A stretch of 64,000 nt of DNA from an uncultured Mycoplasmatota bacterium (GTDB taxonomy: Bacteria > Bacillota_I > Bacilli_A > RF39 > UBA660): NCBI GenBank assembly GCA_948466315.1, contig CAOJZZ010000001.1:16931-80930 (forward strand). Reading direction: 5' to 3'. Below are positions 17,335 through 52,458 of this stretch, in pieces. Both the position numbers and the translations under genes were made by a program. The notes beneath the pieces are model-generated. The model saw only the letters and a list, made by a program, of their open reading frames with translations, was not told the origin of the DNA and made no database searches. Numbering within the stretch: position 1 is the first letter of the stretch; each line of letters starts with the position of its first letter.

Positions 17335-18855
17335 CTAAGAAATCTTATCTATTCTTTTAAATAATGGTTGAGGTTGACATAAATTATAAATATTATTATC
17401 AACATATTCTAAACTAACATCAGAAATATTTATTTGACTTAATATTTCCTTACTAGTATCAGGTAAAAAGGGTTCTAATAAAACACCACAAATACGAATT
17501 GACTCTAATAGATTATATAAAACTGTTTGTAATCGCTCTTTATTATCCTCACTTTTAGCCAAAACCCATGGCTCTGTATCATCAATATACTTATTAGACC
17601 TACGTAAAACATTAAATATCTCTGTTATAGCATCACTAACATGTAATTGATCCATTTTATTAGTAACAACATCTTCTAAATTATTAATAGAACCAATAAA
17701 TGCTAAATCTATATCCTCAGAAACTTTAGAATTTGTAATTTTACCAGCAAAATACTTATTTCCCATTGAAATAGTTCTCTGTACTAAATTCCCAAGTACA
17801 TTAGCAAGATCACTATTAATCCTTTCAATAATTAAATCATAAGTAATATTACCATCACTATTAAATGGTATCTCATGAAGTAAATAATATCTAATAGCAT
17901 CTACTCCAAATTGTTCAACCAATGATGAAGCATAAAGAACATTTCCCTTAGACTTACTCATTTTATCACTATTCATCAATAACCAAGGATGACCAAATAT
18001 TTTTTTAGGAAGCTCTAATCCCAAGGACCACAAAAAGCAAGGCCAATATATAGAATGAAAACGAATTATATCTTTTCCAACTAAATGTAAATCAGCTGGC
18101 CATCTTTTCTTAAATTCAAAACTCTCATTATCAACATCATAACCAATATTAGTAATATAATTAGTTAAAGCATCTAACCATACATAAACAACATGATTAG
18201 GATCAAAATCAACTGGTATACCCCACTTTACACTCGTCCTAGATACACATAAATCCTCTAATCCAGGTTTAATAAAATTATTAATCATTTCATTTTTACG
18301 GGATTCTGGATAAATAAAATCATCATGTGAAGCAATATATTTTTCTAATCTATCCTGATATTTACTTAATCTAAAAAAATAAGCTTCTTCAACCTGTTCA
18401 CTCACCTCTCTAGAACAATCAGGACATTTACCATCAACTAACTGAGACTTCGTCCAAAAAGACTCACAAGGAGTACAATAAAGACCTTTATATTCACCCT
18501 TATATATATCACCTTGGTCATACATTTTTTTAAAAATATGTTGAACAACTCCAACATGATTAGAATCAGTAGTACGAACAAATCTATCATAACTAACATT
18601 CATTAAATCCCAAGTATTTTTTATTTCTAAATAAATCTTATCAACATAATCTTTTGGACTAATTGAAGCCTCTTTTGCTTTTTCTTCTATTTTTATTCCA
18701 TGTTCATCAGTACCAGTCTGAAAATAAACATCATACCCTTTTAATCTTTTAAATCTAGCAATAGCATCTGCTAATACAGCCTCATAAGTATTTCCAATAT
18801 GTGGCTTTGAAGAAGTATATGCAATCGCTGTAGAAATATAATATTTTTCTGCCAT
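17335..18855 (-). CDS. metG: methionine--tRNA ligase (short form)
   Basis: PHIGNTYEAV (HIGH) and KMSKS motifs. The likely start is the ATG at 18853-18855 (MAEKYYIST). The track ORF begins 3 codons earlier at a GTG. Confidence 0.9.
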   Translation of the reverse strand: MAEKYYISTAIAYTSSKPHIGNTYEAVLADAIARFKRLKGYDVYFQTGTDEHGIKIEEKAKEASISPKDYVDKIYLEIKNTWDLMNVSYDRFVRTTDSNHVGVVQHIFKKMYDQGDIYKGEYKGLYCTPCESFWTKSQLVDGKCPDCSREVSEQVEEAYFFRLSKYQDRLEKYIASHDDFIYPESRKNEMINNFIKPGLEDLCVSRTSVKWGIPVDFDPNHVVYVWLDALTNYITNIGYDVDNESFEFKKRWPADLHLVGKDIIRFHSIYWPCFLWSLGLELPKKIFGHPWLLMNSDKMSKSKGNVLYASSLVEQFGVDAIRYYLLHEIPFNSDGNITYDLIIERINSDLANVLGNLVQRTISMGNKYFAGKITNSKVSEDIDLAFIGSINNLEDVVTNKMDQLHVSDAITEIFNVLRRSNKYIDDTEPWVLAKSEDNKERLQTVLYNLLESIRICGVLLEPFLPDTSKEILSQINISDVSLEYVDNNIYNLCQPQPLFKRIDKIS

Positions 18856-18904
18856 TTTACTCACTATCCTCTCATATAAATTATATAAAAATTAATACTA
18901 TAAT

Positions 18905-19110
18905 AATAAAAAAAGATTATTAAAATATAAGGACGACAAAATCGCGGTACCACCTTATTTTATAATAATCTAATATTATACACTTTAATAGATAACGCTT
19001 ATCAGCGACTATACCTACATATCGATATAGTAGTTCAAAAGCCATATCCTAAAAAAAGACTATCCTCTTTTTCAGCAACCGAGGTCTCTAATATAGTCAA
19101 AAATTTTAAG
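18905..19110 (-). promoter_or_regulatory. T-box riboswitch leader of metS
   Basis: The minus strand carries AAGGTGGTACCGCG (plus 18944..18957). This sits inside a terminator helix GATTATTATAAAATAAGG/CCTTATATTTTAATAATC followed by U7 (plus 18908..18970). It lies upstream of an aminoacyl-tRNA synthetase. Confidence 0.6.
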
Positions 19111-19162
19111 ACTCTTCATCACAACTTTTAAAAAATACAATCCAAGTATAACATATCAAATT

Positions 19163-29013: not shown

Positions 29014-30783
29014 TTATTCTATTTCAACAATATCACCAAAAAGTTCTATTGCTTTACTAGTTATTATATCATCTTTTGTTTCTTCTTCAAATATTTCTTC
29101 TGGTTCATCAATGACTTTATATACAAGACCCTCCCTAATACTCCTTATATATTTAGTCTTTTCTCGATTCCATAACTCATCACTAATAATAGCAATATTT
29201 TTATTAGAATTAGTTATTTTATTATAAACTTCTATCATTTTATCTAAAAACAACAGATTCTGTTTAACAACTGAATCATACTCATAACTAAGAATCATAG
29301 ACTCCTCACTAGCAGCTCTAATATGAGCATCTAATAATGCACAAACAACATAGCCAATTTCTTGATCAAAAGTATAATCATTTAATAACTTCATTTTAGC
29401 AACTTCATCATTCAAAATTTGTTTATTAGCTAATGCTAAAGTATTATTAACTCTCACACTCATTATTTCATCAATATTTTTAATTTTAGATATCTGTGAT
29501 TTTTTAATCACTAAATCATTTTCCACATTAAAAACATTATGAGTTTCATCAATGTTCCCATTTTTATTTTTCATATCACCTACATCAGCAGCAATATTTA
29601 CATCAATTGACATATTATTTTGGGAAATAACCTCCTCATTTTTTATTTCCTGGGAAATATTTTTATCCACAGTTTTATTTCCCGATATTTCACAAGAGCT
29701 TGTCATTATTTCCCGGGAAATATTTTCATTACCTTTACAGTCATTAATAAACTTAATCAACAAAGTTTCAATATAAACTGTTGGATTACCACTCCTTTTA
29801 ATATCAAACATCTTCTCATTTATAAGCATAATTAATTTTTGTATTTCATCAACAGAGTAATTAGTTTCTTCATTATTAACATAATAGTTAAAAGAACAAT
29901 TCCTTAGAAAATACATTAACTGAGATATTATTTGAATAATATTCTTACCTTCCTGATTAAATGACTGAATTTCCAACAAAACTTTTGCCATATCACCATC
30001 AAATATAAAATCACAAAACTCACAAAGTCTATCTTTTGTAAGAACACCATTTAGCTCTGAAAAATCATCAAAAGTAATTTTTTCCTTTTTATAAGAACTA
30101 AGTTGATCCAACATACCTAAAGAATCTCTCATTCCACCATCTGAGGTTACAGCAATTTCTTCTAATACTTCACCATCAATATCTATGGACTCTTTTTTAC
30201 ATATCTCAGACAATCGATTTACAATTTTAGACACTGGAATTCTTTTAAAAGAAAAACACTGACATCTAGAAATAATAGTTTCAGGAACCTTCTGAGGATC
30301 AGTAGTAGCCAAAACAAAGATTGCATGCTCAGGAGGTTCCTCTAAAGTCTTTAATAAAGCATTAAAAGCACCAATAGATAACATATGAACTTCATCTATT
30401 ATGTAAACCTTATACTTCAATTGAGATGGAACCAAAGAAATTTTATTCTTCAATTCCCTAATCTCATCCACTCCATTATTAGAAGCAGCATCAATCTCAA
30501 TTATATCCACACATTCCTTTTCGTAAGAAAACTTACAATTTTCACAAATACCACAAGAAGCACCATCAACTGGTGACAAACAATTTACAGAACGAGCAAA
30601 AATCTTAGAAACCGTAGTCTTACCTGTTCCTCTAGGACCAAAAAACATATAAGCATGACAAAAAGAATCATTTTTAACAGAATTACGAAGAGTTCTAATA
30701 ATCGTATCCTGACCCACAACTGTATCAAAATCTTGTGGTCTATACTTCCTATATAAAGCATGATACATAATATCACTTCCCAC
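29014..30783 (-). CDS. dnaX: DNA polymerase III subunit tau/gamma
   Basis: YRPQDFDTVVGQ, GPRGTGKTT, DEVHML and SRCQ motifs. The likely true start is a few codons inside the ORF (MYHALYRKYRPQ). Confidence 0.95.
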   Translation of the reverse strand: MGSDIMYHALYRKYRPQDFDTVVGQDTIIRTLRNSVKNDSFCHAYMFFGPRGTGKTTVSKIFARSVNCLSPVDGASCGICENCKFSYEKECVDIIEIDAASNNGVDEIRELKNKISLVPSQLKYKVYIIDEVHMLSIGAFNALLKTLEEPPEHAIFVLATTDPQKVPETIISRCQCFSFKRIPVSKIVNRLSEICKKESIDIDGEVLEEIAVTSDGGMRDSLGMLDQLSSYKKEKITFDDFSELNGVLTKDRLCEFCDFIFDGDMAKVLLEIQSFNQEGKNIIQIISQLMYFLRNCSFNYYVNNEETNYSVDEIQKLIMLINEKMFDIKRSGNPTVYIETLLIKFINDCKGNENISREIMTSSCEISGNKTVDKNISQEIKNEEVISQNNMSIDVNIAADVGDMKNKNGNIDETHNVFNVENDLVIKKSQISKIKNIDEIMSVRVNNTLALANKQILNDEVAKMKLLNDYTFDQEIGYVVCALLDAHIRAASEESMILSYEYDSVVKQNLLFLDKMIEVYNKITNSNKNIAIISDELWNREKTKYIRSIREGLVYKVIDEPEEIFEEETKDDIITSKAIELFGDIVEIE

Positions 30784-30813: not shown

Positions 30814-31263
30814 TTATCTTTTTCTACGTTCCTCAAAAAAAGACTTAAGAATATTTCTAGAACGAATAACATCTAAATTAGAAACTAAACAAACAGACGA
30901 ATTCACCTTATCTGTAAGAAATATATTCGAAATTATTTCATGATTATGAATATCAGAATTAGACAAAGCAGAATAGACATTACTAATGCGAGCTTGCTTT
31001 ATAGCACTAGCACACATAGGACAAGGATCTAAAGTAACATATATATCACAGCCATCTAAACGCCAATTTCCAATATAATTACTAGCCCTCTCTATAGCCA
31101 AAAGCTCCGCATGAAACAAAGCACAATTCATACACTCCTTTTTATTGTATGCCGACGCAATAACCTTATCATCCTTAACAATAACAGCACCAATAGGAAT
31201 TTCACCATTATTATAAGCTACCATAGCCATATCAAAAGCCATATCCATATATTTTTTATCCAC
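30814..31263 (-). CDS. tadA: tRNA-specific adenosine deaminase TadA
   Basis: HAE and PCPMC zinc ligands. The start codon is GTG, which overlaps a perfect DnaA box. Confidence 0.85.
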   Translation of the reverse strand: MDKKYMDMAFDMAMVAYNNGEIPIGAVIVKDDKVIASAYNKKECMNCALFHAELLAIERASNYIGNWRLDGCDIYVTLDPCPMCASAIKQARISNVYSALSNSDIHNHEIISNIFLTDKVNSSVCLVSNLDVIRSRNILKSFFEERRKR

Positions 31264-31283
31264 AATATCACTCCAAAATAAAA

Positions 31284-31364
31284 GTGCACATAAAAGGAGG
31301 TCCTTAAGGCTGCTATCTTCCGATCCTGACCTATTTCAAACACTTTTATTGCACAAGTTAATTC
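31284..31364 (-). ncRNA. ffs: signal recognition particle RNA, short (4.5S-like) form lacking an Alu domain
   Basis: The minus strand reads GUGCAAUAAAAGUGUUUGAAAUAGGUCAGGAUCGGAAGAUAGCAGCCUUAAGGACCUCCUUUUAUGUGCAC. It is a closed hairpin carrying the domain IV consensus AGGUCAGG-UCCGGAAGGAAGCAGCC-AAGG and is followed by a U-run. Confidence 0.75.
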
Positions 31365-31396
31365 TAATATAAATAATTCTTTTTGTAAACTATATT

Positions 31397-31418
31397 CAAT
31401 GTTTCACGTGAAACATTG
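31397..31418. repeat. 22-bp perfect palindrome CAATGTTTCACGTGAAACATTG (copy 1 of 3)
   Basis: Its reverse complement is identical to itself. Confidence 0.9.
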
Positions 31419-32068
31419 TTCATTTTTGTAAATATACACTCGCTTAAGTAAAAATCAAATAATGAAAAATGTATATTAATACATATTTTTACAATCCACT
31501 TAGTTAATTAACTATAAGAAAAATATTACAAGTCATTTCAAAAAGCATAATAAATAATTCAATATAAAATCTATTTACTATAGAATTATCTATAAAATTC
31601 AAATTAAGCAATTTAATAAATAGTTAAATATAAAAATTGGAGTTATATAAAACATTATTATATTTTTAATTCATAATACAAACAAATTTAAAAAGAATCA
31701 ATATATTACCAAGTTAAATTTTATATAATAACCAATATAAAGGAAAAATTCAAGTAATACTATTAATTGATTTCATAATATTTTCCACAATAATAAAGTT
31801 TATTCTAATTAATTTTATTCAGTTTAATATTTGTTTTGATGTATAGTGTTAGAATTTTTAATATGAATCATATTTTAATTGATATTTATTGTTAAATAAA
31901 TTAATTTCACTTTTTTAATTTTGAAGATATTTTTATTAAAAATTTAACAATTTAATATATTTTAATTAATGATAATATTAAAACATTAAATTTTATATAC
32001 TTTTTATAAATTAATTTATAGACATATTATGTATAAACTTCATATACAATAATAGAATGCACCATAAT

Positions 32069-32103
32069 TTATCCACAATGTTTCACGTGAAACATTGTGG
32101 ATA
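32069..32103. repeat. 35-bp palindrome TTATCCACAATGTTTCACGTGAAACATTGTGGATA (copy 2), flanked by inverted perfect DnaA boxes
   Basis: Near-perfect inverted repeat. Its ends are the DnaA-box 9-mers TTATCCACA / TGTGGATA. Confidence 0.9.
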
Positions 32104-32607
32104 TTTTTCACATGTTGAATATTAATTTAGAAAATAAAATTTTATAATACTATAGAGAGTTGATAAATACAAGTAATAACAGTATTTTTACAGAATAATT
32201 GAACTTTAAGAAGCAAATATTTAATATTTCTTGTAAATAAAGTGTTACAATCTTGAAAAAAATATACATAGTCAGCAAATTACTTTTAAACTAATTGAAT
32301 TTTTTAAACTTTCACAATTTAAAAAATATGATCACTATATATTATAGATTATAAATTACCTACTCACATAAATATATCAATTTACTTAATACTAATTGAA
32401 TAAGAAAAATAATCAAGTAATTTAAAATCAATTATAAGTATTTTGTTCCATTTTTCATACATTACCTATAATGCCTAACAAAACATATCTGTTATATAAA
32501 CTAAAAAAATTAATTTAAAAGATTATACTAAGAAACTTAATCTATTTTATTAATATTAAAAAAATAGCCCTATTCGCTATTATAATATTTCAATATAATA
32601 AAACTTC

Positions 32608-32625
32608 ATGTTCCACGTGGAACAT
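32608..32625. repeat. 18-bp perfect palindrome ATGTTCCACGTGGAACAT (copy 3)
   Basis: Its reverse complement is identical to itself. It has the same CACGTG-centred family consensus ATGTTYCACGTGRAACAT. Confidence 0.9.
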
Positions 32626-33093
32626 CTCAATCCAAATGAACTATCTCCTATTGTAAAGGACTACTTTTTCAAGCAAGTATCACCCCGTAATACTTGAGCT
32701 TGTCTTCGATGCAAGCTCCAAAAAATTAACACTAAAAGATTAAATACTAACAAATTATAAATTGATTATCACACTAAACTAATTAATGTATTCATAAATT
32801 AATATCAACAAAATAAAATATACAAACACTCATTAAACAATTCCTTACTATAAAAACAATTGCTATTTTAGAAAATTAAAATTTCAAATCACCGATAATC
32901 TAATAAAGCTATTAAAAATAAAATACAATATTTAAGAAAAATATTTTCTATATAACATTAGACTAACATAATAACAAAATAGAAATTAAACCCATTATTA
33001 CCTAAAAAAATAGAAAAAATCCTCATATTCCAAACAAAATATTTTATCCACAAGAAAAATTGACTATATTTTACATAATATAATACAAAAATT

Positions 33094-33122
33094 GACAAAA
33101 AAATAATAGGAACTATCCTATT
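33094..33122 (-). terminator. rho-independent terminator of gyrA
   Basis: The minus strand reads AATAGGATAGTTCCTATT (hairpin overlapping the stop codon) followed by AUUUUUUUG. Confidence 0.6.
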
Positions 33123-35577
33123 ATTTACTTACTACATTATTATCATTAATTTCTCCTTCTGATTCTTCTTTAGCAACCACTGTAACAGTAGAAACCAATT
33201 GATCTCCTTTTAGATTAATCAGTCTAACTCCCTGAGTAGCACGACGCAATATAGAAACCTGATCTAAAGGCATCTTCATAATGACACCACTATTAGTAAC
33301 AATTATAATATCTTGCAAATCAGAGTTATCTACACACTTTAATGAAACCATTTCACCATTTTTCTCAGTAATATTTAAGGCTTTAACTCCCTTACTACCA
33401 CGATGTGTTAATCTATATTCATCAATAACAGTCTTCTTACCATAACCATTCACAGTAACTATTAAAATCAACTGTCCAGGAGAAACAACCTCAGCACCTA
33501 CAACAATACTACCCCCAAGTTCTATCCCCTTTACACCTGAACTTCCTCTACTCATAGAGCGAACTTCATTTTCGTCAAAACGAACCATACGACCATTACT
33601 TGCACCTATAACAATTTGATTTTTTCCACAGGTCTTTCTTACACTAATTAACTCATCATTTTCTCTTAAAACTATAGCAATTTTTCCACCTTTTCTAATA
33701 TTATCAAACTCAGAAATATCTGTTCGTTTAATAACACCATTTCTAGTAGCAAACATTAAATATTTAGTTTCAATATCGTCAGTATTAAACTCAATTATCG
33801 AACTAATGTTTTCATCCTTTTCTAAAGGCAACAAATTAACAATTGGCAATCCCTTAGACTGTCTAGAAAACTCTGGAATCTCATATCCCTTCATTCTATA
33901 CACACGACCTCTATTAGAGAAAAATAATATATAATCATGTGTTCTCATAGAAATCAAATGTTCAACAAAATCCTGTTCATTAGTAGACATTCCTTTTACA
34001 CCAACACCACCACGATTTTGAGTACGATATGTATCTGTACGCAAACGCTTAATATAACCATTATTAGTAAGAGTTATAATAATATCCTCAACAGGTATTA
34101 ACGACTCATCTTCAATATATTCAATAGCAGTCATATCAATATTAGTACGACGCTCATCCCCAAATTTATTTTTTATTTCTAATAACTCTTTCTTTATAAC
34201 TTCTAATATTCTCTGTTCACTAGCTAAAATAGCTTTAAGCTCGGCAATTGTCTCCAGTAAGTCACTTAACTCATTTTCAATCTTATCACGCTCTAAGCCC
34301 GTTAAACGACGTAATCTCATTTCTAAAATTGCATTAGCCTGTATCTCAGATAATTTAAAATTATCCATTAAGCCTACCCTAGCATCATCATCAGACCGAG
34401 AACCACGAATTAATTTAATAACAGCATCAATATGATCAAGAGCAATTTTTAATCCCTCTAAAATATGGACCCTCTTTTCAGCAACATCCAAATCAAACTT
34501 AGTTCTACGAATAATAATTTCCTTCTGAAAATCAATATATTTAGAAATAATATCTTTCAAACCTAACGTCTTTGGAACACCTTGATCAAGCATTAAAAAT
34601 ATAATTCCATAACTAGTCTGAAAAGAAGTATGTTTATACAATTTATTTAAAACAACCTGAGCATTAGCATCTCTTTTTAAAGTAATTGTGATTTTTATTC
34701 CATTTTTCAAATCTGAATGATAGTCAGCAATACCTTCAATAGTTTTATTATGTACCAACTCTGCAACTTTATTCTTCAACTCTAAGGTATTAACACCATA
34801 AGGAACTTCATCAATTATAATGTATTGTCTACCATTTTTTTCCTCTATAGTAGCCTTACTTCTCACAGTAATAGATCCTCTACCTGTCTCATAAGCTTTA
34901 CGAATACCACTATTACCTAATATACTAGCGCCTGTAGGAAAATCAGGACCCTTAATATAATTCATTAAACCATCTAAATCAATATCTGGATTATCTATAT
35001 ATGCAACACAACCATCTATAACCTCACCCAAATTATGAGGTGGTATATTAGTTGCCATTCCAACAGCAATACCAGTAGTACCATTAACTAAAATATTAGG
35101 AAAACGTGATGGTAAAACTTCAGGTTCTTTCTCACTCTCATCAAAATTAGGCATAAAGTTAACTGTATTTTTATTAATATTACGAAGTAACTCTAAAGAA
35201 ATCTTTGACAATCTTGATTCAGTATAACGCATAGCTGCTGCACCATATCCCTCAATATTACCAAAATTACCATGACCATCAATTAACATATAACGATATG
35301 AAAAATCTTGTGCCATTCTTACCATTGCCTCATAAATAGAAGAATCACCATGAGGATGATAATTACCCATAACCTCACCAACAGTCTTAGCACTCTTTCT
35401 ATGAGGTTTATCAGGTGTATAACCAGACTCAAACATCGAATATAAAATTCTACGATGAACAGGTTTTAAACCATCACGTAAATCTGGAATAGCCCTAGCC
35501 GTAATAACACTCATAGAATAATCTAAAAAAGAATCTTCAACCTCTTTTACTATATTATTTTTTTCTAATCTGTCCAC
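33121..35577 (-). CDS. gyrA: DNA gyrase subunit A
   Basis: 818 aa with AAMRYTE (active-site Tyr) and GyrA-box beta-pinwheel repeats. It is adjacent to gyrB. Confidence 0.97.
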
Positions 35578-38793: not shown

Positions 38794-39240
38794 TCACTTA
38801 CACTTTCTCTTACGCATAACAAAATCTAATCTAGATGCTCTAGATACCTGATTCTCAATAGTTCGATATGAACAAGGAACAATAATCTCCTTAGCATTAT
38901 CAAAAATAATTTTAGTATTGTAAGGATCAATCTTTATAAATTCTTGAATTCTATTCAATGAAACCCAAACACAATCATCTGCAGATGGCGAAGTAGTCGG
39001 GAAAACAATTAAATGTTCACTATCTTCAACAACAATAGGTACTTTATATTCCGCACCCAAAACCGCTCTAGCACTCTCTTTTCTTCCATTATAAGAACTG
39101 CCAAAGTAAATACAACTATCTTCCATAATCTTAAAAGGTGATTCAGAAATAATATATCTCTCATCATCCTCATAAACTACACTTGTATTCTTTTCATTAG
39201 GCACAATAGCCAATGTTCCCTTACTAATTTCATATTTCAT
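38794..39240 (-). CDS. ComK-family protein (competence transcription factor homologue)
   Basis: YEISKGTLAIVP...MEDSCIYFGSSYNGRKESARAVLG...PIVVEDSEHLIVFPTTSPSADDCVWVSL...VPCSYRTIENQVSRASRL aligns along its length with B. subtilis ComK (YEVNGATIAVLP...SCRFFGSSYAGRKAGT...PIMVDPSNQIFLFPTLS...CGWISH...LPISYNSFENQVYRTAWL). The likely start is the internal ATG at 39238-39240. Confidence 0.75.
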   Translation of the reverse strand: MKYEISKGTLAIVPNEKNTSVVYEDDERYIISESPFKIMEDSCIYFGSSYNGRKESARAVLGAEYKVPIVVEDSEHLIVFPTTSPSADDCVWVSLNRIQEFIKIDPYNTKIIFDNAKEIIVPCSYRTIENQVSRASRLDFVMRKRKCK

Positions 39241-39543
39241 ATTAAATTCCCCCTCAAAAATGAAATTACTAATAAAATAGCACAAGACATTATCGAAAAA
39301 AATCGATTTCTGTCAATTTTTACTACTTCTATTATATTATTAGTAAAAAAAATAAAAATTCTAACAAATAAAATTACTTTTTTGATTAGTTATATAAAAT
39401 ATATTAATTGATTAAAAAAATTAACATAATATATCATTAATAATTTTAACAAAACAAAAAAATAGATTATATAAAAAATATCATACATTTTATATAATCT
39501 TATAAAAATAAAATACCTAATTTTCTTTCCACAATTTTTCAAA

Positions 39544-40803: not shown

Positions 40804-42162
40804 TTACACAATACCAATATCTTTTTTTAATTTCTCTATTATATTTGCTAAATCTTTATTAACCTTAATTTCATTTTCAATCTTTTCAACAGAGTGCATT
40901 ACTGTCGAATGATCTTTTCCACCAAATTCTGTTCCTATCTTAGGAAAAGATTCACTAGTCATTGTTCTACAAAGATACATTGCAATCTGTCTAGGAAAAG
41001 AAATATTAGAGCTCCTTTTTTTACTTCTAATATCCTCAACAGATATTTGAAAATATTCAGAAACTATTTTTTGTATTCTATGAATATCATTTTTTTCCCC
41101 CATTCCTTTACTAATAAAGTCTTTTAATGCTTCTAATGCTAAATCTAATGTAATATTAGCCCCACCCATAATAGTAGAATAAGCTATCAATCTAGTAACA
41201 GAACCTTCAAGTTGCCGGACATCAGTTCCAATATTAGAAGCAATATATTCAATTACATCATCAGGTATTTCTTGCTCAAAATTACCTGAAATTATCTTTT
41301 TTCTTAATATTTCTTTTCGTAAAGTAAAATCTGGAGGAAATATATTTACTGTTAATCCCCAACAAAATCTAGTTCTTAAACGGTCCTCCAATAACTTCAA
41401 ATCATCAGGAGATCTATCAGAAGAAATAATTATTTGTTTACTATCATTATAAAGGGTATTAAATGTATGGAAAAACTCCTGTTGTGTTTGAGTAGCTCCG
41501 CCTAAAAATTGAATATCATCAATAATAAGAACATCTATATTTCTATACTTATCCTTGAAAAAATCAACATAATTAAAATTTGTACCATTATCATCTTTTT
41601 TATTAATTCCAACAAAATCTTGTATAAATTGATCACTTGTAACGTAGAGCACTTTTTTATTTGTATTGGCAACTATATAATTACCAATAGCATGCATAAG
41701 ATGAGTTTTACCAAGACCACTATTTCCATAAATAAAAAGAGGATTATACATATTACCAGGGTTTTCCGCTACTGATAAAGAAGCAGCTTGAGCAAATTTA
41801 TTACTATTACCAACAATAAAGTTTTCGAACGTATATTTATCTTTTAAATTTGAATTTTCTAAATACTTTGATGTGGTTTTAACACTTTCTTCTTTTAATT
41901 CCTCCTTTTCTTGAATTTCCTCTTTTAATAATAATACCAACTCATAATTAGAACCAGTAATGGCTAATAATTTATCAGAAATTAAACTTGCATAATTATC
42001 AATTAAATGTTTTTTATGAATAGGCATTGGTACAATTATATAGGCCTTACCATTATGTAATCTATATAATTTAGTATCCGAAAACCAAGTTTCAAACGAA
42101 AGTGAAGTAAGTTCATCTTTTATTTGTCCTAAAAAATTGGACCATAAAATATCAACATTCAT
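40804..42162 (-). CDS. dnaA: chromosomal replication initiator DnaA
   Basis: AAA+ motifs GNSGLGKTHL and LIIDDIQFL, plus C-terminal DNA-binding domain IV. The likely start is the internal ATG (MNVDILWS); the track extends it to 42177. Confidence 0.97.
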   Translation of the reverse strand: MNVDILWSNFLGQIKDELTSLSFETWFSDTKLYRLHNGKAYIIVPMPIHKKHLIDNYASLISDKLLAITGSNYELVLLLKEEIQEKEELKEESVKTTSKYLENSNLKDKYTFENFIVGNSNKFAQAASLSVAENPGNMYNPLFIYGNSGLGKTHLMHAIGNYIVANTNKKVLYVTSDQFIQDFVGINKKDDNGTNFNYVDFFKDKYRNIDVLIIDDIQFLGGATQTQQEFFHTFNTLYNDSKQIIISSDRSPDDLKLLEDRLRTRFCWGLTVNIFPPDFTLRKEILRKKIISGNFEQEIPDDVIEYIASNIGTDVRQLEGSVTRLIAYSTIMGGANITLDLALEALKDFISKGMGEKNDIHRIQKIVSEYFQISVEDIRSKKRSSNISFPRQIAMYLCRTMTSESFPKIGTEFGGKDHSTVMHSVEKIENEIKVNKDLANIIEKLKKDIGIV

Positions 42163-42209
42163 AATACCACCCCGCAAGAAAACTAAACTACGATTAGTAT
42201 AAATTAAAT

Positions 42210-42386
42210 TGTGGAAAAAAGAAACAATTTTATGATAAAAAAATTATCAACAATTAATCAACAAACTTTTCCACTAAAAAACATATTGATATACTTCAAA
42301 AAAATAAAGTTTTCCACATTTTCCACAGTTTTTTATAAACACAATAGTAAAACTTATTCCACAACAATGTGGAAATTGTGGATTGC
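42210..42386. promoter_or_regulatory. oriC DnaA-box cluster upstream of dnaA
   Basis: DnaA-box 9-mers with one or two mismatches at 42210, 42310, 42319, 42355, 42368 and 42378 (TGTGGAAAA, TTTTCCACA x2, TTATTCCACA, TGTGGAAAT, TGTGGATTG). An AT-rich DUE-like tract follows. Confidence 0.75.
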
Positions 42387-42848
42387 AAATTAAAAAATAA
42401 TAAAAAAAATAAACTTTTAAATCACTCACAAAAAATTTATAATTAAAGATAACTATATACTTATTCTAGATAATTAAAATTTTCAATTTGATTAATAAAA
42501 GACTTAAGAAACTGGTATGAAGATATTAAATTTTTATTATTACCACCCTACTCTATAATACTAGCCAGAAAAATTCTAAATACTAAATAATAATTAGCTA
42601 CTAAATACCAATAAATTTCTTAGACTTGTTAAATAATAAAAAACTTCTATGTATAAAAATAACACTATATACTAATTCATCAATAATAATTTGATAAAAT
42701 ACAAAATTTTCCCTTCCTAAAAGATAAACATTTCTATACCAATATTTATGAATTACTTTTAGTATTACAACTAAATTAACACTTAATATAAATAAGCTCT
42801 CTTAAAAATAATGAAAAACTATCCTAAATAAATATTTTAAAAATATAA

Positions 42849-49299: not shown

Positions 49300-50694
49300 A
49301 TGAATACAGAAAATACTGATGAAGTTGTGTATTTACATTTAGATGACATCATTCCAAATAGATTCCAACCACGGGAAATTTTCGATGAAAGGGCGTTAAA
49401 GGAATTAGCCGTTTCAATAAAAGAACATGGTGTAATTCAGCCTATCATTGTAAGAAGCGTTAAAGGAAAATATGAAATTATAGCTGGAGAGCGTCGATAC
49501 AAAGCCTCTGCATTAGCTGGTCTTACTAAAATACCAGCAATTATAAGAGATTTAGATGACAAAGAAAGTTCAAAAGTAGCACTATTAGAAAACCTTCAAC
49601 GAAAAAATCTAACTCCAATTGAAGAAGCTAGAACATATCAAAAGATCCTAGAAATAGATGAGATGACTCAAGAAGAACTAGCAAAAACAATGGGAAGAAG
49701 CCAATCATCTGTTGCGAACAAACTACGTTTATTATCTTTACCAGATGAAATTCAAGATGCTCTATTAAAAGAAAATATCTCTGAACGTCATGCCAGAGCG
49801 TTGTTAAACATACCTGAACCAAAAAAACAAAAAGAAATGTTAAAGAAAATAATAAATAATAAAATGAGTGTTAGATCAGTAGAAGAAGAAATAAAAAAAT
49901 TATATCCAAAAGAAGATAGTAAAGATGAGGTTAATGCAAATATGGATAGTGAAATAATAGGTGTACCATCATCAGCTGTTATAGCATCAACATCAGACTT
50001 TGTTAATACTAATCCATTACTACCAACTACAGATATTCCAGAAGAAGATGAGGATAATTATGGAAAAGTAAGAATAGTTCCACCAAAAGAAGAACAATCT
50101 GAAGAAAATACTAAATTTATAAATTATGGAGAAATCAATGATGAAGAAGAGGAGGAGGAGGAAGACTCTGATATGTCGCTAGACTTTACTGGAGTACCTA
50201 ATCAAATTGATGTAAATAAAATCAAAGAAAATGCTGTTGATATTAGTAGTCAAAAAATATCTAGTAATGCTCCAACAGCCGACTTAGATAGCCTTTTGAA
50301 TTTAAAAGCACCAACAAATCAATCATCTTCAAATGATAGTGGTTATAAATTTATAACCCCAGCAGAAGAAATAGTCAAAACAGATGCTAATAAAGCAAAA
50401 AATGAAAAAATAGGTGATTATTTTAAAACACCAGATTTAGTCTCTGTAGAATTGCCATCAGAAGTTCAAACTTCATCGACTGCTAATGTCTCACTAGATT
50501 CGATTCTAAATCAAGCAGAAGCTAAAAAGAAAGAACAAAATAAATATACTGTTGAGCAAGCTATTGAAAAAATAAATCAATTAGTAGAAGATTTGAAAGA
50601 ACATGATATTAAAGCGGAAGTAGATGAAATGGATTTTGATAAATCTTATCAAATTATAATTAAATTTAATAAAAATCAAGAAGAGAAAAAGTAG
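49300..50694 (+). CDS. noc: ParB/Noc-family protein with a ~260-aa acidic low-complexity C-terminal tail
   Basis: The N-terminal ParB domain contains IVRSVKGKYEIIAGERRYKA and an HTH. It is followed by a Glu/Asp/Ser-rich tail including EEEEEEEEDSD. It occupies the noc position after rsmG. Confidence 0.75.
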   Translation: MNTENTDEVVYLHLDDIIPNRFQPREIFDERALKELAVSIKEHGVIQPIIVRSVKGKYEIIAGERRYKASALAGLTKIPAIIRDLDDKESSKVALLENLQRKNLTPIEEARTYQKILEIDEMTQEELAKTMGRSQSSVANKLRLLSLPDEIQDALLKENISERHARALLNIPEPKKQKEMLKKIINNKMSVRSVEEEIKKLYPKEDSKDEVNANMDSEIIGVPSSAVIASTSDFVNTNPLLPTTDIPEEDEDNYGKVRIVPPKEEQSEENTKFINYGEINDEEEEEEEDSDMSLDFTGVPNQIDVNKIKENAVDISSQKISSNAPTADLDSLLNLKAPTNQSSSNDSGYKFITPAEEIVKTDANKAKNEKIGDYFKTPDLVSVELPSEVQTSSTANVSLDSILNQAEAKKKEQNKYTVEQAIEKINQLVEDLKEHDIKAEVDEMDFDKSYQIIIKFNKNQEEKK

Positions 50695-50780
50695 CGAAAA
50701 ATCTACTTTTTTTGCTAAAAGCATTTAAAAAAAATATATTATTTGATACAATAATAAAGAAAATGGAAATAGGTGATAAG

Positions 50781-51569
50781 ATGGGAAAGGTTATATCATT
50801 AGTAAATCAAAAAGGTGGCGTAGGAAAGACAACAACAAGTATCAATCTTTCTGCATCATTAGCAGTATTAGGGAAAAAAGTATTATTAATAGATTTGGAT
50901 CCACAAGGAAATACAACTACTGGTGTAGGAATAAATAAAGGAGATATCGAAAGAAGTGTTTATGATGTATTAATAGGTGAATGTAAAATTACAGAAGCTA
51001 TGATAAAAACAAAATATAAAAATCTTTATGTTTTACCAGCTACCATAAATCTTGCAGGATTAGATATTGAATTAGTTGAAAAGAGTAAACAAGAAAATGG
51101 TTTTCAAAAAGGAGAACAATTGAAGATTAATATAGCAGATATTAAAGAAAGTTTTGACTACATAATAGTAGATTGTCCACCATCATTAGGCGTAATTACT
51201 ACAAACGCCTTAACAGCCTCAAACTCAGTAATAATTCCGGTTCAATGTGAATTTTTTGCTTTAGAAGGAATTACTCAATTATTGAAAACAGTTATGTTAG
51301 CTCAAAAAAATTTAAATCCAACTCTAGATATAGAAGGAGTACTATTAACTATGCTAGATTCTAGAACCAACCTAGGTTTTGAAGTTGTTGATGATATTAG
51401 AAAATTCTTTAAAGAAAAAGTTTATAATACAATAATACCAAGATTAGTAAGATTAACAGAAGCTCCATCACATGGAGAACCAATAATAGCATATGACCCT
51501 AAAAGTAGAGGATCAGAGGCATATATGAACCTAGCAAAGGAAGTGATAGAAAGAAATGGAAGCAAATAA
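50781..51569 (+). CDS. soj: chromosome partitioning ATPase ParA/Soj
   Basis: The deviant Walker A motif KGGVGKTT. The likely start is the ATG at 50781 with RBS AGGTGA; the track begins at 50712. Confidence 0.95.
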   Translation: MGKVISLVNQKGGVGKTTTSINLSASLAVLGKKVLLIDLDPQGNTTTGVGINKGDIERSVYDVLIGECKITEAMIKTKYKNLYVLPATINLAGLDIELVEKSKQENGFQKGEQLKINIADIKESFDYIIVDCPPSLGVITTNALTASNSVIIPVQCEFFALEGITQLLKTVMLAQKNLNPTLDIEGVLLTMLDSRTNLGFEVVDDIRKFFKEKVYNTIIPRLVRLTEAPSHGEPIIAYDPKSRGSEAYMNLAKEVIERNGSK

Positions 51570-52458
51570 TCAGAATAGTAAAAGAAGAGCCTTAGGTCGA
51601 GGATTAGAAGAATTATTCTATAATGAACCAATTGATTATAATAAGGTAGAAGAAAAGATTATTGATACCACTCCAAAAGAAGAAATCACGATGATAAAAT
51701 TAGATGAATTAAGATCTAATCCATATCAACCAAGAAAAATATTTGATCAGGAAGCTCTAGAAGAGCTAGCTGTTTCAATCAAAGCGCATGGTGTATTTCA
51801 ACCTATTATCGTAAAGCAAAGTATTAAAGGGTATGAAATAATAGCTGGTGAGAGAAGAGTAAAAGCATCTAAAATATCTGGATTAACAGAAATACCAGCC
51901 ATTATTAGAGACTTTAATGATACTCAGATGATGGAAATAGCTTTACTAGAAAATCTTCAAAGAGAAAATTTAAGTGCCATAGAAGAATCATCAGCATATA
52001 AAAAATTAATAGAGACTTTAGCAATTACTCAAGAAGAATTAGCCAATCGCTTAGGCAAAAGCAGAAGTCACATTACTAATATGTTAGGATTATTAACACT
52101 TCCTGAAGAAATTCAAATAGCAATCGGCAATAAAAAAATATCTATGGGCCATGCTAGAGTATTAAGTAAATTAAAAGATAAAAATCAACAACAAGAACTA
52201 GCTGAAAAAATAATAAAAGAAGGTCTAAGTGTACGTCAACTAGAGGACTTAACTAATTCAAAAGAAGAATTTGTAAGAACTCATAAAATTAAAAAGAATA
52301 AAAATGACTCTAATGAATATCAATACATTCAAGAAGAAATGTGTGAGAAACTAGGAACAAAAGTAAAGGTAAAACATAATAAGATAGAAATTAGTTTTGT
52401 CAATGGAAATGATCTAAATAGATTGCTTGAAATAATGAATATACAACTAGGAGGTTAA
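51556..52458 (+). CDS. spo0J: chromosome partitioning protein ParB/Spo0J
   Basis: ParB motif IIVKQSIKGYEIIAGERRVKA plus an HTH. Confidence 0.95.
   Translation: MEANNQNSKRRALGRGLEELFYNEPIDYNKVEEKIIDTTPKEEITMIKLDELRSNPYQPRKIFDQEALEELAVSIKAHGVFQPIIVKQSIKGYEIIAGERRVKASKISGLTEIPAIIRDFNDTQMMEIALLENLQRENLSAIEESSAYKKLIETLAITQEELANRLGKSRSHITNMLGLLTLPEEIQIAIGNKKISMGHARVLSKLKDKNQQQELAEKIIKEGLSVRQLEDLTNSKEEFVRTHKIKKNKNDSNEYQYIQEEMCEKLGTKVKVKHNKIEISFVNGNDLNRLLEIMNIQLGG

Follow-up and report, generated by a model that had tools for sequence, protein, structure and literature searches.

Introduction

In Bacillus subtilis, the parS sites of the Spo0J/Soj partition system are dispersed over hundreds of kilobases, with one of them lying inside spo0J, and plasmid centromeres built of tandem repeats are also known, for example F-plasmid sopC, which is bound by SopB. 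Here, we analyzed a stretch of 64,000 nucleotides (hereafter, the window) from an uncultured Mycoplasmatota bacterium of the RF39 lineage (GenBank assembly GCA_948466315.1, contig CAOJZZ010000001.1), in which the spacer between gyrA and the gene for the small signal recognition particle (SRP) RNA, judged from its sequence, is very probably a centromere-like ParB loading region consisting of a dedicated parS cluster. The published parS consensus of chromosomal ParB/Spo0J proteins is TGTTNCACGTGAAACA (PMC7022226), and parS clusters near the origin have been described in Pseudomonas aeruginosa (the four sites closest to oriC), Corynebacterium glutamicum (10 sites), and Myxococcus xanthus (22 sites) (PMC4368675, PMC7083940, PMC7022226). 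The binding site of the nucleoid occlusion protein Noc (Noc-binding site, NBS) has the consensus ATTTCCCGGGAAAT (PMC3020112), and the NBSs of B. subtilis have been described as scattered around the chromosome (PMC4331003).

The locus described here shares with the B. subtilis Spo0J/Soj system, which has 10 parS sites, eight of them near oriC, the same 16-bp consensus, a Spo0J-like ParB, and the gene order rsmG-noc-soj-spo0J on the other side of dnaA. Unlike in B. subtilis, the parS sites of the window all lie in one noncoding spacer on one side of dnaA, none is located in parB, and DnaA boxes abut them. Like the clusters of P. aeruginosa, C. glutamicum, and M. xanthus, they are redundant sites concentrated near the presumed origin region as a probable single ParB loading zone; in this lineage, parS occupies one dedicated intergenic spacer and forms tandem units of 62–97 bp in relatives. 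Two of these relatives (L053 and L064) resemble sopC-type centromeres in having head-to-tail units with one ParB-family binding palindrome each, whereas the gap in the window has no tandem structure and the units of the relatives carry two sites (parS and NBS) for two paralogous proteins. Consensus DnaA boxes in an intergenic region near dnaA recall the DnaA-box clusters (DBCs) of B. subtilis, but the boxes found here are far fewer, widely spaced, and interleaved with parS. Finally, the Firmicutes NBS is represented by perfect and near-perfect copies in dnaX of the window, by arrays in the gaps of relatives, and by an encoded Noc-type paralog. Unlike in B. subtilis, the NBSs of the relatives are concentrated beside parS, and the gap in the window has none.

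Three Palindromes between gyrA and the SRP RNA Gene Match parS

The initial annotation described the region between gyrA and the SRP RNA gene as a tract free of open reading frames (ORFs), carrying three palindromes centered on CACGTG, and explained the latter as the operator of an unidentified dimeric regulator. The descriptive part of this proposal was borne out. The longest ORF wholly within the gap (31366–33120; 79% A+T) encodes 46 aa, and the three palindromes are present at the claimed places, with lengths of 22, 34, and 18 bp, all perfect. The second had been reported as 35 bp long; its true extent is 34 bp (32070–32103), T32069 having been added to complete the DnaA box at its left end.

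The three palindromes share the 16-bp core TGTT(T/C)CACGTG(A/G)AACA and match TGTTNCACGTGNAACA with no mismatches, in exact agreement with the parS consensus. The first site, parS-1 (TGTTTCACGTGAAACA; 31400–31415), forms the core of the 22-bp palindrome (31397–31418) and is located 34 nt upstream of the 5' end of the SRP RNA, just upstream of the predicted -35 element. The site parS-2 (32079–32094), identical in sequence to parS-1, is the core of the 34-bp palindrome with its 17-nt arms, and parS-3 (TGTTCCACGTGGAACA; 32609–32624) that of the 18-bp palindrome (32608–32625); the C/G variant of parS-3 at the N positions occurs in relatives too. The core TGTTNCACGTGNAACA is found three times in the 64-kb window against 0.09 expected, and all three copies lie in the gap. 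No additional degenerate parS was detected in the window at up to three mismatches. The three sites are 9–11 kb from dnaA and its associated DnaA-box cluster.

Proteins predicted to act at these sites are encoded on the other side of dnaA. A 300-aa ParB/Spo0J protein (51556–52458, plus strand; Pfam ParB_N and HTH_ParB) is a predicted parS-binding CTPase clamp, whose closest solved structure is that of B. subtilis Spo0J (6SDK, E = 1e-63). Alignment to 6SDK revealed a GERRxKA motif in place of the GERRxRA of Spo0J, together with the segments GKSRSH...SMGH and IIAGERRVKASK; the helix-turn-helix (HTH) segment is GKSRSHITNMLGLLTLPEEIQIAIGNKKISMGH. Four residues have been reported to set parS versus NBS specificity, with R173 and G201 diagnostic for parS (PMC7383237). 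The corresponding residues in the 300-aa protein are R, M, T, and G, with Arg at the R173 equivalent and Gly at G201, and by these residues its predicted specificity is of the parS type. The operator hypothesis is therefore unnecessary: the palindrome is a canonical parS, and both a cognate parS-type ParB and a Noc paralog are encoded in the window.

A ParA/Soj ATPase (50712–51569, plus strand; Pfam AAA_31, CbiA, and ParA) is encoded directly before ParB, and this gene is in turn preceded by that of a Noc-like ParB paralog of 464 aa (49300–50694, plus strand). The specificity residues of the latter are Q, K, S, and R, and its nearest solved structures are those of Noc (7NG0 and 7NFU). About 200 aa of acidic, low-complexity sequence precede the C-terminal end of the Noc-like protein. 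In the alignment with the solved chain of B. subtilis Noc, residue 5 of the protein falls on residue 24 of that chain, and the protein may therefore be devoid of the N-terminal segment of B. subtilis Noc.

parS Is Conserved in the Orthologous Gap of Relatives

Comparison of the syntenic locus, which had been proposed as a check on the motifs, was carried out with 80 gyrA loci, one genome per species, of which 53 have gyrA and tadA on one contig. The remaining 27 have no tadA match on the contig, mostly since the contig stops soon past gyrA. The relatives, whose GyrA proteins are 75–88% identical to that of the window, are all metagenome-assembled genomes of uncultured gut Bacilli, such as 'Mycoplasma sp. 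CAG:877', 'Clostridium sp. CAG:710', and Ca. Faecimonas, and judging by their record names they probably belong to an RF39-like group.

The parS motif proved to be conserved in the gyrA-tadA gap of all 53 relatives, with 1–10 copies per gap (median 4) and at least two copies in 50 of them. Its density was 4.2 per kb in the gap but 0.011 per kb over the other 1.04 Mb of the 22-kb loci, a difference of approximately 400-fold. On the opposite side of dnaA, 1.14 Mb of sequence covering 20–45 kb, from this species as well as from relatives, contained no parS. The gap itself ranges from 231 to 2341 bp in the relatives, its length correlating with the number of parS sites (r = 0.61). In 18 of the 53 relatives, the parS nearest to the SRP RNA precedes it by 27–40 nt, a range that includes the 34 nt observed in the window. 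BLAST alignments across species run from the SRP RNA up to the nearest parS and end there, and the remainder of the window spacer has no homolog detectable by BLAST in other species. Within the species, the spacer is 99.5–100% identical in contigs from at least six samples. We regard the AT-rich DNA without ORFs as spacer between sites, and both its length and the number of sites vary freely among relatives.

Across 214 parS sites, the only positions conserved beyond the core are an A at -1 (97%) and a T at +16 (98%). These two flanking bases account for the 18-bp ATG...CAT motif that the initial annotation had delineated. A DnaA box as a piece of a general extended parS motif was ruled out by the same flanks. 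A search of the gap in the window for tandem and dispersed repeats found no array and only a 42-nt similarity between the flanks of parS-1 and parS-2.

Many parS palindromes extend beyond the core. Extension by at least four complementary pairs per side was seen in 23% of 167 symmetric sites compared with 5% in a null set with shuffled flanks, and the extensions (4–12 pairs per side) differ in sequence from site to site, as at L012:13013, L088:12518, and L075:13113. The 34-bp palindrome of the window is one case of this clade-wide extension, which could stem either from correction or extension templated by a hairpin or from a selective advantage of forming hairpins or cruciforms. The same palindrome is the break point of all the independent short-read contigs of the species, and parS palindromes and arrays appear to break short-read assemblies at the gyrA-tadA locus (for example, in L003, L004, L007, L089, L092, and L093).

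Noc-Binding Sites Alternate with parS in Relatives

The NBS, searched as ATTATTTCCCGGGAAATAAT, was found in the gaps of 49 of the 53 relatives, at 2.9 per kb versus 0.042 per kb elsewhere. In many relatives, parS and NBS strictly alternate in the tandem units mentioned above, with up to nine pairs. In L064 (12574–13233), a 75-bp unit is repeated 8.8 times with 92% identity, and in L053 (3813–4309), a 64-bp unit is repeated 7.8 times with 90% identity; every unit in both arrays contains one parS and one NBS. Further parS-NBS tandem arrays are present in L022, L026, L027, L033, L039, L042, L051, and L058.

In the window, a pair of NBSs was located in dnaX (29014–30783, minus strand), where, within 29645–29721, it flanks a perfect DnaA box. 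The NBS at 29645–29658 has one mismatch, that at 29708–29721 is perfect, and the box lies at 29663–29671. This stretch falls in the low-complexity linker of the protein, where it is read as NIS(R/Q)EI and TVDKNI. An NBS occurs at the same dnaX offset in many relatives, approximately +1545–1555 nt from the tadA start, and on these sequence grounds DNA sites for protein binding appear to be embedded in the coding sequence of dnaX.

DnaA Boxes Accompany parS

Perfect DnaA boxes (TTATCCACA) are located at 29663, 31256, 32069, and 33044 of the window, that is, four within 3.4 kb, whereas chance would give 0.63 in the whole 64 kb, and none of 100 shuffled sequences reached four. The enrichment proposed by the initial annotation was hence upheld, and it recurs in relatives, although the annotation had missed the box at 29663 inside dnaX, and the gap itself contains no more than two perfect and two one-mismatch boxes over 1.75 kb. 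One of the perfect boxes (32069–32077, plus strand) is separated by a single base from parS-2. Its counterpart on the right side of parS-2 (32096–32104, minus strand), within the palindrome arms, is a mirror image across the site; the palindrome had been described as ending in inverted DnaA boxes, of which the left one is indeed perfect, whereas the right one (ATATCCACA) has one mismatch. This second, imperfect box may be a mirrored copy of the first that arose through palindrome extension. The other perfect box in the gap (33044–33052, plus strand) lies about 70 nt past the gyrA stop, and the other one-mismatch box (TTTTCCACA; 31781–31789, plus strand) is of the variant that dominates beside dnaA. 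A DnaA-box cluster occupies the classical oriC position upstream of dnaA (42210–42390); it consists of one-mismatch boxes only, mostly TTTTCCACA, and no perfect box adjoins dnaA.

Perfect boxes are found in 23 of the 53 gaps of the relatives, at 0.75 per kb compared with 0.096 per kb outside, an approximately eightfold enrichment. The boxes that the initial annotation placed at the edges of the tract behaved differently from each other. The box at 33044 recurs across the clade, with a counterpart in 31 of 69 relatives, where about 5% would be expected from the background density; the counterpart reads TGTGGAWAA (TATGGAWAA in two of them), usually with AATATTTT coming next, and it lies in the same gyrA-sense orientation no more than 200 nt from the gyrA stop. 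In contrast, the box at 31256–31264 (plus strand), which overlaps the GTG start of tadA, is species-specific, being absent from that position in all 53 relatives.

Perfect boxes abut parS at a distance of 0–2 nt in 14 cases from nine related species and in at least two orientations; independent placement would give approximately 0.15, with the count of 14 inflated by tandem copies. The module TTATCCACA-A-parS of the window recurs in L069 and L087. In L065, the 34-bp palindrome is matched at 97%, but the one-mismatch sequence TTATACACA stands at the position of the box. The shared orientation of the four boxes in the window was not treated as evidence because the plus strand has a strong excess of C over G. 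The DnaA boxes are a genuine and recurrent companion of parS, an association that is weaker than that of parS with the gap.

Past the gyrA terminator (33053–33100 in the window), we also observed a motif composed of TTGTAAA/TTGTCAA, a spacing of about 17–19 nt, (T)ATGTAAAAT, a further 8–12 nt or so, and a DnaA box. The same motif is found at the equivalent place in L014, L015, L016, L019, L024, and L062. By its sequence, it looks like a sigma-70-type promoter aimed into the parS array, whose start site would be close to the DnaA box.

Gene Content of the Window

The window, with 25% G+C, encloses a classical Firmicute origin neighborhood. On the minus strand, dnaA (40804–42177) is followed by dnaN, a ComK-family gene, recF, gyrB, and gyrA (33121–35577), and past gyrA by the gap, the small SRP RNA, a tadA-type deaminase gene, and dnaX; YbaB, recR, and bofA lie beyond dnaX in contigs of the same species. 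The plus strand carries, from 42.9 kb, rpmH, rnpA, yidC, jag, mnmE, mnmG, and rsmG, and then the noc-like, soj, and parB genes. The identity of GyrA was confirmed by PF00521 and PF03989 and that of the tadA-type deaminase by PF00383, while genes that were not subjected to a Pfam search are named by position and ORF length. The small SRP RNA (31272–31365, minus strand) scored 55.9 bits in Rfam and has a predicted promoter, TTTACA-17-TAGAAT, at 31389–31361.

The ComK-family protein gene between dnaN and recF spans 38794–39285 on the minus strand (Pfam E = 2e-42). A T-box leader (18926–19131, minus strand; Rfam 111 bits) is located upstream of a 509-aa ORF (17335–18864). In one strain of the same species, an rve-family, IS-like integrase gene lies upstream of rpsF (L095:3078–4046); another contig of the species, L097, has ychF at this place, indicating that strains differ near the origin region.

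Evaluation of the parS Assignment and Alternative Explanations

Several observations weigh against the view that the spacer is a dedicated, origin-proximal parS cluster. The genome was sampled over 64 kb, and parS may exist elsewhere. The sites in the window are spaced 530 and 679 bp apart, far above the clade median of 148 bp, and about 1.6 kb of the spacer is left without an explained function. Unlike in 49 of the 53 relatives, NBS is absent from the gap 31366–33120 even at up to three mismatches. The join across the 34-bp palindrome relies on the assembly of the window and on synteny in the 53 relatives, no independent contig spanning the palindrome. Lastly, the strand bias at third codon positions (synonymous sites) does not flip at dnaA, and the term origin-proximal accordingly refers to proximity to dnaA.

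The all-site GC skew does switch sign at the DnaA-box cluster of dnaA. Third-codon-position composition, however, tracks the physical strand rather than the side of dnaA. To the left of dnaA, T3 was about 0.53 in all 29 minus-strand genes, with A3 of 0.31, G3 of 0.14, and C3 of 0.02, and all 20 plus-strand genes right of dnaA had A3 of 0.51, T3 of 0.34, G3 of 0.065, and C3 of 0.083. Four minus-strand genes farther to the right, on a contig of the same species (L095:14865–20379), resemble the left-hand genes. Relatives among L099–L122 repeat this strand pattern, and one more distant relative, L118, is conventional. To the right of the window, sequence reaching about +32 kb for this species and up to about +45 kb for relatives showed no flip of the bias. 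The sign change of the all-site skew at dnaA can be produced by coding-strand effects alone. If the third-position bias reflects replication, the minus strand would, on the conventional reading, be the leading one both left and right of dnaA, over at least 75 kb. Forks left and right of dnaA would then share one direction of travel, and therefore the origin would be displaced or effectively unidirectional. In an extended model, the spacer would be a composite hub that gathers sites for ParB, for DnaA, and, in relatives and in the adjacent dnaX, for Noc, on one side of dnaA only, and the parS cluster would mark the early-replicated side. We consider this extended model doubtful; if it were true, assembly of the partition complex would be physically coupled to initiation control and to nucleoid occlusion or membrane tethering.

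The tract might also be primarily a DnaA-box cluster, similar to a B. subtilis DBC or E. coli datA, that titrates DnaA or represses neighboring promoters, the palindromes being secondary. We regard this as a possibility to be taken seriously, if not the favored one. The surplus of perfect boxes in the window (four, all within 3.4 kb, where 0.63 would be expected per 64 kb), the roughly eightfold enrichment in the gaps of relatives, the gyrA-proximal box with counterparts in 31 of 69 relatives, and the abutment of boxes to parS in nine species would all fit it, and DBCs and Spo0J/Soj act jointly on DnaA in B. subtilis (PMC3245932). Nevertheless, the 1.75-kb gap holds just two perfect and two one-mismatch boxes, 30 of the 53 gaps of relatives are without a perfect box, yet parS occurs in all of them, relatives lack the box that overlaps the start of tadA, and a common orientation of boxes is expected from the C-over-G excess of the plus strand. 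A DnaA-related function added to that of a parS cluster would be compatible with the parS assignment, and we hold it with the same reserve.

Other functions for the palindromes are less plausible. That they serve as operators of an unidentified dimeric transcription factor regulating nearby genes is very unlikely: their dyad symmetry is perfect, and one copy lies just upstream of the predicted -35 of the SRP RNA, but their sequence is exactly that of the parS consensus, the gene for a ParB with parS-type specificity residues lies nearby, and 1–10 copies in tandem arrays without associated genes are unlike operators. We also think it unlikely that the palindromes act mainly in RNA, as intrinsic terminators working in both directions or as insulators that separate gyrA from the SRP RNA, or that the tract encodes an unannotated noncoding RNA (ncRNA). 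The three palindromes do score as terminator-like hairpins with T-rich tails (four found versus zero expected), in some relatives a parS palindrome comes immediately after the stop codon of gyrA, and the arms are extended by arbitrary yet complementary sequence; a terminator, however, needs no invariant core of 16–18 bp, and gyrA of the window already has, from its sequence, a hairpin of its own at the stop. As for an ncRNA, which the initial annotation had considered, Rfam models at gathering thresholds detected only the SRP RNA and the distant T-box in the whole window, a scan of the gap at E ≤ 10 gave nothing beyond the SRP RNA (other matches had E ≥ 0.87, far below threshold), and a scan for tRNA and tmRNA found none. 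The double hairpin at 32660–32714, which had been put forward as a candidate, was rejected, as the hairpins of 32640–32730 folded on both strands only marginally better than shuffled sequences (z of about -2) and have no counterpart in other species.

It is very unlikely that the tract represents either the decayed remains of an rRNA operon or of other genes or a second replication origin, with the motifs being incidental. The tract is long, ORF-free, and rich in A+T, and in Bacillus, rrnO follows gyrA, which was counted in favor of decay; still, no rRNA or tRNA remnants were found, and the gap of the relatives is filled by parS and NBS units rather than by gene remnants. A second origin was dropped, neither the all-site nor the third-position skew changing at 31–33 kb. 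A dedicated parS cluster serving as a ParB loading region remains our preferred reading of the spacer.

Discussion

The central element of this locus is a known kind of site, and what is unusual is its architecture. By analogy with the biology of ParABS systems, ParB dimers would bind CTP and be loaded at the three parS sites, where they would close to form clamps that slide onto the flanking DNA. The resulting partition complex would be built over the dnaA-proximal region and work with ParA/Soj in chromosome segregation, and it would probably load SMC as well. DnaA would most likely be bound beside the ParB/Soj complex, where it may serve as a sink or as a point at which initiation control and partition are coupled. 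The DBCs of B. subtilis cooperate genetically with Spo0J/Soj to hold initiation in check (PMC3245932), and in Staphylococcus aureus, Noc affects initiation (PMC5540599). In view of these precedents, a role of the DnaA boxes in coupling initiation control to partition seems reasonable.

Literature searches found no adjacency of DnaA boxes and parS, no adjacency of parS and NBS, and no parS array in RF39. A dedicated, fast-evolving intergenic parS cluster that is accompanied by DnaA boxes and, in relatives, interleaved with Noc sites thus has no earlier description that these searches could find.

The assignment removes a false lead, as no new regulator is needed for the palindrome, and it provides a precise map of the probable centromere for an abundant uncultured gut lineage. 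It is also of practical importance, since long parS palindromes appear to break short-read assemblies at the gyrA-SRP RNA locus. The picture across the clade exceeds the window in interest: it is that of a rapidly evolving, satellite-like intergenic array of ParB sites, which in most species alternate strictly with Noc sites and often have DnaA boxes at their flanks. This arrangement suggests a direct coupling in cis of segregation, nucleoid occlusion, and initiation control, of the sort at which genetics hints in B. subtilis, through DBCs with Spo0J/Soj, and in S. aureus, through Noc and initiation.

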